The notes under the pieces were generated by a model. That model was given only the letters and a program-made list of their open reading frames with translations. It was not told the origin of the DNA and made no database searches. A stretch of DNA of 42,381 bases, taken from Amoeboaphelidium occidentale. Taxonomy: Eukaryota. Location of the stretch: assembly GCA_023515795.1 (NCBI GenBank), contig JALGPX010000099.1, positions 1 through 42,381 of the forward strand, read 5' to 3'. Of this stretch, positions 3,931 to 42,381 are shown piece after piece (positions within the stretch are counted from its first letter, which is position 1; every line of letters starts with the position of its first letter). A program made the position numbers and the translations under genes.

Positions 3931-5091
3931 TTATTTAACAGCCTTCTTTAGCGCTTGCTCAAGATCTTTAATTAGGTCATTGGTTTCTTCAATGCCAACA
4001 CTGATTCTAACAAGCGAGTCAGTTATTCCCAAAACCGCTCTATCTTCAGGAGCAACTGAGGCGTGAGTCATGACACAAGGGAGTTCTGCTAGAGATTCAA
4101 TACCTCCCAAAGATTCTGCCAAAGTGAAATACTGACAACTTGACAAGAACTTGGTTGCTTCATTGACACCACCTTTAATGTAAAATGATATCATTCCACC
4201 AAAGCCCTTCTGTTGTCTCTGAGCAAGTTCGTGCTGAGGATGACTCTTGAGACCAGGATAAATCACCTTTGTGACATAAGGCGAGCTTTCCAAGTACTGA
4301 GCAACAGCTAATGCATTCTCTGCGTGTGATCTCATTCGAACATGCAAAGTCTTTAAGCCTCTGTTAGCAAGGAAACAGTCGAATGGAGAAGGAATAGCCC
4401 CAATAGAATTCTGTAAGAACTTCAACTTTGTGTAAATGTTCTCATTGTTTGTGATCATAACTCCCATCACAACATCACTGTGACCATTCAAATATTTTGT
4501 GACTGAATGCACAACGACATCAGCACCCAATTCCAAAGGTCTTTGAAAGTACGGACTCAAAAACGTATTATCAGTAACCAAAATAACGCCGGGATACTCT
4601 TTAACAATCTTTGCCACAGCCGCAATGTCGACTAATTTAAGCGTCGGATTAGTTGGAGTTTCGATCCAGACAAGTTTAGTGTTCGACTTGATATACTTTC
4701 TTAGACTCTCAGGGTCCTTTAAATCAGCAAAAGAACATTCAATTCCCAATGTAGACGCAACTTTTGTGAAGTATCGGTAAGTTCCTCCGTAAACATCATT
4801 AACAGAGACAATGTGCGATCCTGTGCCGAGCATTGTGACTATCGTGGCAGTAACAGCAGAACCAGAAGCATACGCCAAAGCGTATTTGCCCTGTTCAAGA
4901 GAAGCCACAGCAGTTTCGAAAGCAAATCTTGTTGGATTATTCGATCTGGAGTATTCATAGCCTTTATGAACACCTGGGGCTTCCTGGTGGAAAGTTGTAC
5001 TTAAACTAATTGGTGGGATGACAGCACCAGTGGTCGGGTCAGGATGTTGCCCAGCGTGGATGGCATTCGTGCCAAAATGTTCAAAAGTCAT
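3931..5091 (-). CDS. CYS3: Cystathionine gamma-lyase, copy A (intronless)
   Basis: YSRSNNPTR, ETPTNP, DNTF, SVTKYLNGHSDV (PLP lysine), AESLGG; ATG at 5089-5091 (MTFEHFGT). Confidence 0.93.
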   Translation of the reverse strand: MTFEHFGTNAIHAGQHPDPTTGAVIPPISLSTTFHQEAPGVHKGYEYSRSNNPTRFAFETAVASLEQGKYALAYASGSAVTATIVTMLGTGSHIVSVNDVYGGTYRYFTKVASTLGIECSFADLKDPESLRKYIKSNTKLVWIETPTNPTLKLVDIAAVAKIVKEYPGVILVTDNTFLSPYFQRPLELGADVVVHSVTKYLNGHSDVVMGVMITNNENIYTKLKFLQNSIGAIPSPFDCFLANRGLKTLHVRMRSHAENALAVAQYLESSPYVTKVIYPGLKSHPQHELAQRQQKGFGGMISFYIKGGVNEATKFLSSCQYFTLAESLGGIESLAELPCVMTHASVAPEDRAVLGITDSLVRISVGIEETNDLIKDLEQALKKAVK

Positions 5092-5215
5092 TCTAGGAAA
5101 TAAAGTTTGTGGGAAAATTTTGTTGGCCTCCACGTTTGGGAAGATTGCAAATCTTGCGAAAGAGCACGACAGAATAATGAAAAAGACACTTACGTAAAAT
5201 TACGCTTTTATACTT

Positions 5216-6444
5216 TTAATTAGATTTCTTGACAGCCTTCTCCAGAGCCTGTTGCAAATCTTCAATTAAATCCTCTGAGTCTTCCAAACCAACGCTGAAA
5301 CGAATCAACGCATCAGTAATTCCAAGCTTAGCGCGATCTTCAGGAGAAACACTTCCATGTGTCATAATACAAGGCAATTCAGCAAGAGACTCCGTGCCAC
5401 CCAAAGATTCTGCAAGAGTAATGTAATTCAAACTGGACAAGAACTTTGACGATTCTTCTAAGCCACCTTTAATGTAGAATGAAACCATACCACCAAACCC
5501 TTTCTGTTGTTTCAAAGCAATCTTGTGCTGAGGATGGGAAGGCAGACCAGGGTACAGAACCTTCTCGACATAAGGTGAACTCTCCAAGAATTTTGCACAA
5601 GCAAAAGCATTTTCTTCATGACGCTTCATTCTAACGTGCAATGTCTTCAAACCTCTTGAAGCGAGATAACTGTCAAAAGGAGATGGAATCGCGCCCATTG
5701 AGTTCTGTAAGAACTTTAATTTGGTGTAAATCTCTTCAGTGTTTGTCAAAGCGATTCCCATGACAGTATCACAGTGACCATTCAAATACTTTGTTACAGA
5801 GTGAATGACAATATCAGCGCCAAGATCAAGAGGATTCTGAAAGTACGGAGACAGGAAAGTATTATCAACCACGAGAATAGTTTCTGGCCTCTCTTTGACA
5901 ATATCAGCGATCGCTTTGATGTCAGTCAGCTTCAAAGTAGGATTCGTTGGAGATTCGATCCAGACCATTTTGGTGTTTGGTCTCAAATGCTGTCGCAACA
6001 CTGAAGGATCATCCAAATCACAAAATGTAACTTCAACACCCAAAGTAGACGCAATCCTGTTGAAGTAACGATAAGTGCCACCATAAACATCGTTAACAGA
6101 AACAATATGTGAACCACCGCCAAGCATTGTCGTTATTGAAGTTGTTGTTGCGCAACCTGAAGCGAAAGCGACACCAAACTTTGCATTCTCCAGAGATGCG
6201 ACAGCCTTCTCAAAAGATCCTCTTGTTGGATTATTGGTTCTGGAATACTCAAAGCCCTTCAAGTAAAAACGTTTAGATTATCATCACACTATCGATTAAC
6301 AAATACCTTGTGCTCTCCTGGCGCAGACTGTGCATAAGTTGTGGTCAAGTAAACAGGCGGAACCAAAGCGCCGGTAGTTGGATCAGGTTCTCTTCCATAG
6401 TGGATAGCGCGTGTAGCAAAACGGGCTGAGGATGGAACAGTCAT
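5216..6444 (-). CDS. CYS3: Cystathionine gamma-lyase, copy B; intron 6257-6306
   Basis: Same motifs (YSRTNNPTR, SVTKYLNGHCD, AESLGG). Exon 1 MTVPSSARFATRAIH...EHK splices to GFEYSR. Confidence 0.92.
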
Positions 6445-39822: not shown

Positions 39823-40596
39823 TCACTGCAGATCTTTAATGTATCTCTCCCTTTGCGCATTGAGCTTTTGTTCATTAGATTTTTTCTTTGGTATTAAATC
39901 TTTCAGGATTTTTAAATGATTCTGAAATATTTCTTCTCTGTTCTCGTCATTAGGAATCTTGGACACTCTTGCCAGGTCAAGCATTACAGGCTGAAGAGTC
40001 CAGCCGTTCTTAATCTCTGATGGAAGTAAGCCGATATGATCCCATTTCACCTTTCTATCTTCCTGCTTCCAACCGCACTCAATTATCATTCGATGTAAAG
40101 CTATTCTAGCAACTTTCAGTGGATCACTCAACAAGCTTTTTGATTCATCGTTCTCAAGTACAGAATCCTCTTTCATTACTGAAACGTCAAAAAAGGAGGG
40201 ATATTATCACTTGTAGATTGTCAGCGAGACTCCCAAGTTGACATTGGACAGAATCGTAACTCATTAGGATATCGACGAATATGAAATACGAACGGCATCA
40301 TCATGGCATATCGTTTAAGCATAGAAACTACAATTGTGTCTACTTCCCATAATTCCTTCCACATCTTCTGTTCATTTTCTGCCATGTATTTTTCTTGAGC
40401 AAGATCGTCATCAATGAAGAACTTGGCGACCCAAATGTGACCCTCGCCTTAGGATTTGCACCGGTAGTCCATAAAGCAACCTTTCCGTCTCCTGTATGTT
40501 TATAAACATGCAGAAAGAACAATTTGCGTGGATTGCCAGGCAGTGGGAATTCATCCCTTGCTCGTTGATTAGAACAAATATGAATATGACTAAAGA
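39823..40596 (-). pseudogene. Decayed, 5'-truncated kinase-like (DUF5898/Crinkler-associated-like) gene
   Basis: Manual translation: ...LFFLHVYKHTGDGKVALWTTGANP[fs ~40449]GEGHIWVAKFF...ENEQKMWKELW...YAMMMPFVFH...SR*(40221-40223)...PPF[fs ~40190]DVSVMKED...WKQEDRKVKWDHIGLL...PVMLDLARV. Family assignment is from remembered motif pattern. Confidence 0.6.
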
Positions 40597-42381
40597 CACT
40601 GTTCCCATAACAACCGTCAGGATCGCCGCGTTTTTGCAATAATGTTCACTTCTCTTTATCATTCTTTCTCTATTGGGTCCACTTTCTTTTCGAAAATTCT
40701 CATCAAATGCACATTCCACCTGATGCTAGCCAAGATCACAGTGAAAGCAATCCCCATGTAGATCAAGCCTTTCCTATGGATCTTGACACCACGGATCAAC
40801 CGACTAATATTGTGGAGATTGAAATGGAACCGGTTCAAAGAACGGCTGCTTCAGCTGTAGATGTGATATCCACTGGCGATGATGTTGTTGGTGTCTCTTC
40901 ATCCGCATCAAAACGCAAGAGGAGAACTCAATGTAAATGCGGATATACAACTCATTTGAACATCTCCCACTCTACGTGCCCATTCAACAAGAAGCTAAAA
41001 TATAATTCAGTAATCGACCCTGTCTCAGCAAATGCATCTCCTTTTGTAGCCGCAAACGATCAATCTGCTGATAATGAGAATTCCGTAAAGAAGTGTCCAT
41101 CCTGCGGGGGGACTGATCACCAGCGGAAGTCAAGCAAAAAGTGTCCCAAGTATCAAGGAAACTTCGCAGATAGATACAAAGAACATGATCAAGAAGAATC
41201 TGAATGTACAGTAAAGTTAGGCTTGAATACTCTGTATAATCGAAAGTTGGAACCAGAGCAAAAGCAGCTGCTGCATAACGTTATACAAGATGCTGTATAT
41301 CGGATGGCAGAAATTTATTGTGAAACTACTAAATTGCTTCAAGGATACTTGATTTGGATTTTGGAACATGGTGGTAACATCCCCGATATTAGGTTTAGCG
41401 ATGGCATATTATCACAATTTTTCCAGGCTGTACAATTTGCGAATGAAAATTCTTATAGAGTTCCAAATACAGTCGCCACTGAAAGCGTTAATAGGTACGT
41501 CTCGGAGTTCTATAGTGCCGCAAGAGGAGAAAAGTCTTTTTGCGACGGATCCGGTCTNTGGTAACATCCCCGATATTAGGTTTAGCGATGGCATATTATC
41601 ACAATTTTTCCAGGCTGTACAATTTGCGAATGAAAATTCTCATAGAGTTCCAAAGACAGTCGCCACCGAAAGCGTTAATAGGTACGTCTCGGGGTTCTAT
41701 AGTGCCGCAAGAGGAGAAAAGTCTTTTTGCGACGGATCCGGTCTGTCGCATATGATTGCGACAGTTGCGAAAATGTATGGGACAAACTGCATGGTGCATT
41801 ATTCTTTGAACATGAGAAGATATTTGAAGCAGGTCCTGTGATTTTATTTGAAGCAATCTATCAGTGAGGATGTGAACGCAAAATCATTTAAGAGAATCGA
41901 ATCATACCTCCTTAAACAGTTGTGTAGAGAAGAATATCATAACAATCTTATACAGTTCCCCGTTGATGCGTTAAAATTCAACGATCATTGTAAATCATCT
42001 GGAGATTTACAAGAAGATCAGAGAACTCTCCTCTCCAAAGTCGTAACAGTTTGGGATAGAATGCTGAATATCATGGAATTTAAAACCGCTGGATCAGAAA
42101 CAATCAAAAAAACTTGGTGGTCTTATATCAATCCGTTCTATAATCTATTAGTCGTGTCAGGCGAATATTGTCTGTCTGAAGCTGAGCAAAGAAGAACAAG
42201 CAAAATCAAGGGCCGCTCCCTGCGATTATTTAATTTATTTCCCCAAGCTTCTCATCATCTGATGCATATTCCAATTGACAGTACAATATTGGTTGATCTT
42301 CTTTCCTCCGTCGGCCTGAAGAAATTTGGTTACAAGAACAAAGAAGAATGCGCGGCTGATCCACTGAAAGTTTGGAAATCG
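40597..42381 (+). mobile_element. Transposon carrying a Fanzor1-like ORF (ATG 40707), running off the window; left boundary approximate
   Basis: Two Cys/His zinc knuckles, TVKLGL...IQDAVYRM..IYCE..KLL..YL...L.....IP, and RLFNLFPQ....MHIPIDSTILVDLL...VW, which resemble the Fanzor1 N-terminal half; intronless; interrupts a pseudogene; internal TGA at 41839-41841. Confidence 0.7.
41372..41744. repeat. 186-bp direct duplication around single N (41558)
   Basis: 41372-41557 vs 41559-41744 with 4 substitutions. Confidence 0.9.

Follow-up and report, generated by a model that had tools for sequence, protein, structure and literature searches.

A truncated, probably inactive Fanzor1 copy with N-terminal zinc knuckles in a repeated element of Amoeboaphelidium occidentale

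The window analyzed here, an entire 42,381-bp contig of the algal parasite Amoeboaphelidium occidentale, ends in an interrupted reading frame that is cut at position 42381, before any RuvC segment. The Fanzor1 family comprises RNA-guided nucleases in its studied members, and the locus raises the question of whether the frame belongs to that family and, if it does, whether this copy could still function. We consider it highly likely that the stretch covers the N-terminal part, 496 codons or about 60%, of a Fanzor1 gene carried in a repeated element, that the contig end cuts the gene, and that a premature TGA makes the copy a likely pseudogene. The NCBI models compared with it are abbreviated P0003 (KAI3657723.1, the studied copy), P0004 (KAI3655506.1), P0005 (KAI3656286.1), and P0009 (KAI3657851.1).

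The left part of the frame runs uninterrupted from its ATG to a single N at 41558, which separates the two members of a 186-nt repeat pair with 4 mismatches (Table 1). The right part, read from 41560, contains the TGA as its sole stop, followed by 180 codons that stay open to the contig edge, just as an earlier note on this DNA had described. Collapse of the duplication gave 1488 nt, or 496 codons with the TGA as codon 316, in agreement with the single frame of about 495 codons that the note had obtained by collapsing the repeat and reading through one TGA. Sister copies start four codons upstream of the window's ATG, at MSDQRFIPPD. The duplication arose where the assembly joined two alleles or paralogs. 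The single-copy form is found in P0004, which is encoded on an independent 1248-bp contig from A. occidentale and is 98.8% identical to the left piece. Read depth at the N dropped to 0-10 in four public sequencing runs and no bridging contig was found among those listed, a depth hole alone being no proof; in run X1, which is possibly the source of the assembly and thus not independent evidence, the second repeat copy is found on a 113-nt piece of its own, covered at roughly half the depth of the flank. Other Fanzor gene models of A. occidentale show comparable repeats around an X, namely those in rows 631 and 1425 of the part of the Saito 2023 supplement consulted.

Table 1. Positions of the Fanzor1 frame, its motifs, and the surrounding element in the window
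Feature	Position	Strand	Basis
Left part of repeated Fanzor1-carrying element; left boundary at about 40585-40591, runs off the contig	40585..42381	+	Flank-switching contigs
32-nt segment, possible terminal inverted repeat or end of a different repeat	40553..40584		Also present in two further X1 contigs that diverge from the window to its left and right
Fanzor1 frame; once collapsed, 496 codons for the N-terminal part, with extension, zinc knuckles, WED, and REC; RuvC off the contig	40707..42381	+	ORF reading, alignment; NCBI model KAI3657723.1
First CCHC zinc-knuckle motif, aa 76-91	40932..40979	+	Motif pattern
Second CCHC zinc-knuckle motif, aa 130-146, the clade-conserved one	41094..41144	+	Motif pattern, alignment
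TVKLGL, first WED strand	41208..41225	+	Aligns to P0009 aa 63-68, a strand in the P0009 model
Overlap copy 1 (assembly join), 186 nt	41372..41557	+	Repeat comparison, read depth, P0004
Overlap copy 2, from the other allele or a paralog, 4 differences	41559..41744	+	Separate 113-nt piece in run X1
TGA in frame at codon 316, within a REC helix; probably a nonsense mutation	41839..41841	+	ORF reading, alignment, P0009 model
F-x-L-x-P...I-x-I-D motif, second WED part	42229..42279	+	Profile aligns the motif to FSAIPL...VRIDT of SpuFz1

The frame had been read in the earlier note as the WED/REC half of a Fanzor1 on the strength of a T-V/I-K-x-x-L and an F-x-L-x-P...I-x-I-D motif, and both are present, as TVKLGL (aa 168) and FNLFP...IPID. 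The window's pieces alone had no match in Pfam or the PDB, P0005 alone recovered no Fanzor from either database and just a sub-threshold match to PF07282 (E 0.0017), and a profile of 20 N-terminal fragments found no Fanzor in the PDB. The Fanzor1 assignment therefore depends on full-length relatives. The right-hand piece alone retrieved 45 relatives at E<=1e-3 from 1.84 billion representatives. The paralog P0005 (804 aa) is 40% identical over the whole query and contains TNG, GLDPG, E-YRTSQV-CxxC (E-x6-CxxC), and RDVNAA; P0040, a metagenome copy, is 85% identical over the window's last 40 aa and reaches GLDPG 65 residues later; and P0032, an internally deleted copy that is also 85% identical, joins to SEYRTSQVCFNC, the RuvC-II segment. 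The corresponding sites of the studied copy lie off the contig, and in the relatives the RuvC-I D-P-G is present in P0040, P0005, P0009, and P0072, the glutamate six residues before CxxC in P0032, P0005, P0009, and P0072, and the C-terminal zinc finger with the RuvC-III R-D in P0005, P0009, and P0072. Because P0005 is without two conserved segments and the gene models of the three catalogued sisters fall short of their spans, sister copies in this assembly are at best presumed to be intact; the core is complete in P0009, and P0072 shows every motif. All three RuvC patterns were found in 13 of the 24 matches of a P0005 search (12 with DPG, 1 with DLG). In the parts of Yoon 2023 consulted, the Fanzor1 RuvC-II Glu is described as rearranged to six residues before CxxC (PMC10711439). 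As a separate observation, P0024 and P0025 have D-V-N instead of D-P-G at RuvC-I and keep E-x6-CxxC and RD; P0024, from Amoeboaphelidium protococcarum, has 16 members in one 90% cluster, many of them 696 aa, which suggests a recent expansion.

A family alignment of 37 sequences, picked from the relative searches mainly by length, was used to build a profile of 662 positions, in which the window's right piece occupies positions 98-365. PF07282 matched 22 of the 37 members at E<=0.01. The profile matched SpuFz1 (E 1.3e-29) and GtFz1 (E 1.3e-27, the latter over positions 47-644), followed by TnpB-like proteins at E 2e-5 or weaker. An AlphaFold model of P0009, which is 37-40% identical to the window's pieces and stands in for the window protein, had a pLDDT of 86 and a pTM of 0.83 (P0005, modeled from its single sequence, reached a pLDDT of 37). 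A fold search with the P0009 model placed seven Fanzor1 chains at the top (E 4e-21 to 1e-16), ahead of Cas12f (2e-5), and its residues 58-716 superimposed on residues 18-633 of SpuFz1 with Z 24.0 and an rmsd of 3.7 over 542 residues. The comparison with SpuFz1 that the note had proposed succeeded for the family profile and the P0009 model but not for the window's pieces by themselves. The window aligns to P0009 aa 26-392, a stretch that spans the knuckle, the opening strand of WED, REC, and the greater part of the second WED portion, so that by way of the P0009 fold and its match to SpuFz1 it has an enlarged REC and a Fanzor1-type WED. In a tree of the right-piece columns for 35 of the 37 rows (P0040 and P0054 were too short), with no TnpB or Fz2 outgroup, the window grouped with P0004, P0005, P0009, and P0072 at 100/100, and P0005 and P0009 carry the FZ1 label in the part of the Saito 2023 supplement consulted. 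In the ESM Atlas, the matches at 0.90-0.91 were to unnamed clusters rich in Mucoromycota; recognition was low, and the lead is a weak one. The relatives' motifs, the profile matches, the P0009 fold, and the tree all bear out the WED/REC reading. Fanzor2 and the IS607 TnpBs have a compact REC of about three helices, a length of about 400-500 aa, and a linked serine recombinase, whereas the present family has about 570-850 aa and a large REC; the P0009 model matched Fanzor2 with Z 11.0 only over 412-708, the RuvC part, and no recombinase-like ORF was seen by eye upstream of the frame.

The state of the copy turns on the TGA, and the frame as read indicates that it is probably a pseudogene. An X1 contig of the sister type has 4 differences from the window that match P0004's residues and retains the TGA, so the stop is common to near-identical copies. 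Among these copies, 7 of 9 differences are non-synonymous, compared with 79% expected without selection, which fits neutral drift, although a sample of nine is too small to demonstrate relaxed selection. The data do not support an origin of the TGA by CpG decay, the observed/expected CpG ratio being 0.91 within the element versus 0.75 elsewhere. Both P0003 and P0004 treat the 36 nt (12 codons) at 41833-41868 as an intron, and one alternative is that this intron is real and that a spliced, nearly full-length Fanzor1 is made. Its size fits the apparent introns of 36 and 40 nt in the neighboring CDP-diacylglycerol synthase gene, but its GTCCTG donor and GAG acceptor are unlike those of the neighboring introns (GTAATA...TAG and GTATTT...AAG), the same NCBI model also skips over the N join, and the 12 codons align to a segment that is helical in the P0009 model and kept in 32 of the 33 other spanning rows, the exception being P0004 with its identical skip. 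We therefore regard a genuine intron as improbable. The relative A. protococcarum reassigns other stop codons, which together with the sharing of the TGA by near-identical copies speaks for its being recoded or read through in A. occidentale, with translation of the whole frame. Against this, TGA terminates 3 of the 14 host ORFs read in the window (DnaJ, Ada3-like, and kinase, named by eye), and the TGA column holds mostly K, R, or Q in the other rows and never W or C, making recoding very improbable.

Two further accounts concern what lies beyond the edge and the family itself. The copy could also be internally deleted or 3'-truncated, with no RuvC downstream; P0032 jumps from the same region to its RuvC-II segment, and the gene models of the closest catalogued copies fall short of their spans by 133, 183, and 302 nt (three proteins, in the part of Saito 2023 consulted), which suggests that decay is common. 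However, an X1 contig, judged by its extent, runs 326 nt beyond the edge unbroken, and P0040 demonstrates that the subfamily continues into RuvC-I, so we judge such a second defect unlikely. Finally, the frame might be that of a DDE transposase or Helitron protein, or of some other, unrelated zinc-knuckle protein, since the knuckle motif alone also retrieves transposase-like metagenome ORFs (L001, L004, and L007; piggyBac-like by eye). Those matches are confined to the knuckle, whereas the entire sequence beyond aa 165 can be aligned to proteins carrying Fanzor RuvC motifs and every top profile and fold match is a Fanzor1, rather than the DDE transposase, Helitron Rep, or unrelated family that the note had named as grounds for abandoning its reading; the chance that the frame is not a Fanzor is negligible. 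We retain the interpretation of an interrupted Fanzor1 copy cut by the contig end.

The copy lies on a eukaryotic contig and within a repeated mobile element, as befits a Fanzor of eukaryotic or viral hosts, its left boundary being common to unrelated flanks. Contigs with long unrelated flanks begin to match at 40585 (four in X2, four in X3), 40589 (X1, X2, and X3), and 40591 (X1), which places the boundary as given in Table 1; the single-copy contig of X1 ends at 40609. The summed depth over 40605-40670 was 10-17x that of the flank and that over the ORF about 2-5x, depth not being equal to copy number, and this excess at the left end is a hint of derivatives that keep only that end, comparable to the 'ghost' loci of Spu-1. 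The adjacent 32-nt segment has loose ends before 40553 and behind 40584 and a summed depth of about 392 versus 106.7 for the flank; the match to the orthologous flank in X2 and X3 stops at 40551, and the X2/X3 consensus before 40585 partly resembles the segment. It may mark where a different repeat ends, or may be a terminal inverted repeat seen from right ends, and the true left end could lie at 40553. A 16-nt inverted match (40111-40126 and 42357-42372) was dismissed as chance (E 0.09) and also falls outside the repeat boundary. Several minor features accompany this region. At 40580-40634 two X1 variants join the single-copy flank at depths of 65 and 49 versus 107, suggesting two haplotypes. 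About 70 nt left of the boundary is a near-perfect 20-nt palindrome (40494-40513; self-match E 0.03) with sub-threshold Rfam hairpin matches; the four Rfam matches obtained were all far below the gathering score. A DUF5898 (PF19250, E 1e-11) gene fragment at 40224-40448 (-), with 39826-40203 (-), points away from the left end of the element, and its 5' part may have been interrupted by the insertion. Inspection of the contig by eye revealed no transposase.

The N terminus may set this clade apart from the solved Fanzor1s. A C-x1,2-C-x3,4-H-x7,8-C knuckle precedes the first WED strand in 24 of the 25 rows that reach that far, one member having a longer spacer, and in 14 of 15 far-reaching rows retrieved by a knuckle-free query. 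Two knuckles are present in the window protein and in P0061. Pfam zf-CCHC_6 matches P0004 weakly (E 0.21, below the cut-off). The knuckle lies outside the segment structurally aligned to SpuFz1 and GtFz1, and the same knuckle heads granulovirus Fanzor1s and transposase-like ORFs. The latter, at 252-2693 of L001, 216-2762 of L004, and 462-1298 of L007, open with almost the same CCHC motif. A metagenome scan by knuckle patterns gave 7 loci, none of them a Fanzor, and no paper on a Fanzor with a zinc knuckle or CCHC was found in the literature searched, which covered few subscription journals. A wider proposal, which we advance tentatively and hold to be doubtful as a whole, is that the Fanzor1s of A. 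occidentale form a large radiation that was mobile recently and belongs to a clade with an N-terminal CCHC knuckle, doubled in the window's subfamily and absent from the solved SpuFz1 and GtFz1; that this nucleic-acid-binding module, shared with unrelated transposases, may help to load omega-RNA or hold target DNA; and that intact members (P0072, P0009, P0014, and P0016) may be active programmable nucleases with new TAMs. The conserved knuckle is in any case a testable structural difference from the solved Fanzor1s.

The closest comparisons are with relatives from the same organism. KAI3661661.1, KAI3656286.1, and KAI3657851.1 are labeled FZ1 in rows 1426-1428 of file 3 of Saito 2023 Supplementary Table 1 (PMC10432273) and are all Fanzor HMM hits in Tables S2/S3 of Yoon 2023, whose curated set includes the latter two (PMC10711439). 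Within the parts of these supplements consulted, file 3 has 26 'occidentale' rows, with the FZ1 label on 17 of 19 among the rows listed (PMC10432273), and Yoon 2023 has 84 'occidentale' occurrences (PMC10711439). The sister proteins are thus already catalogued as Fanzors, and no report of their testing was found in the sources covered; the note had suggested that intact sister copies could be an uncharacterized programmable nuclease. KAI3657723.1 and P0004 are absent from the two Saito 2023 and Yoon 2023 supplement files searched, the two files searched of the Jiang 2023 supplement hold no Amoeboaphelidium entry (PMC10530073), and no main-text mention of aphelid or Amoeboaphelidium Fanzors was found in the literature searched, again with few subscription journals covered. 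KAI3661661.1 is visibly the closest over the first 300 residues and has both knuckles (by eye, first 400 residues). The catalogued FZ1 entries share organism and clade with the studied copy; unlike them, KAI3657723.1 and P0004 lie on contigs without RuvC and carry the TGA or its skip. We conclude that the locus is a new but truncated, probably dead member of an already catalogued Fanzor1 radiation. Rows 630 and 1394 of file 3, also A. occidentale entries, have by eye an apparent XPG/FEN-like N terminus before the TnpB/Fanzor part.

SpuFz1 of the Spu-1 element (Spizellomyces punctatus; PDB 8gkh and 9cez) has, by way of P0009, the same WED-REC-WED-RuvC-zinc-finger order and fold, and Spu-1 is likewise a repeated element; the lack of a visible transposase is paralleled here, and the much deeper left end hints at 'ghost'-like derivatives. 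Identity to SpuFz1 is about 17-18%, and SpuFz1 has 17 residues before the aligned strand, whereas the window has a 165-residue N-terminal extension with two CCHC knuckles. GtFz1 (9cer; Z 19.4) has the Fanzor1 fold and aligns from residue 2, so that a knuckle would not fit before the aligned part, and PpFz1 (9cf0; Z 22.9), with the same fold, is compared from its residue 103. Granulovirus Fanzor1s (L008-L011) have the same N-terminal knuckle, then the WED strand, and then a Fanzor RuvC; at 22-24% identity and 571-576 aa, they form a long separate branch in what is a biased sample, having been found via the knuckle pattern. They are likely the HAgv-1 and PUgv-1 elements of Bao and Jurka 2013, who, in the parts consulted, defined the C-terminal motif and listed the granulovirus elements (PMC3627910).

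In SpuFz1, according to the parts of the published accounts consulted, omega-RNA comes from the right end, REC/WED reads the TAM, and RuvC cuts (PMC10432273 and PMC11423790). By analogy, intact members would load an omega-RNA transcribed from the right end of the element plus flank, use REC/WED to recognize a short TAM, and cleave the corresponding empty site, and repair of the cut site would restore the element and help to keep it. Movement would depend on an unlinked transposase, so that dead copies and left-end-only derivatives would still be able to spread. Help in trans is raised as a possibility, not a result, in the part of Saito 2023 consulted (PMC10432273). At this locus, about 280-380 further codons would follow past the edge, with the RuvC-I Asp about 65 codons beyond, then E-x6-CxxC, RD, the right end, and an omega-RNA, as projected from sister copies. 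The studied copy itself would give a 315-residue product without RuvC, and because of the TGA its RNA-guided, TAM-dependent cleavage is unlikely. It is accordingly of little importance, and the clade is of modest use, uninterrupted relatives being available. NCBI models of A. occidentale Fanzor genes can mask stops and assembly joins as introns, so candidates should be chosen from the DNA. Elsewhere on the contig, two tandem cystathionine gamma-lyase-like genes were recognized by eye at 3931-6277 (-).
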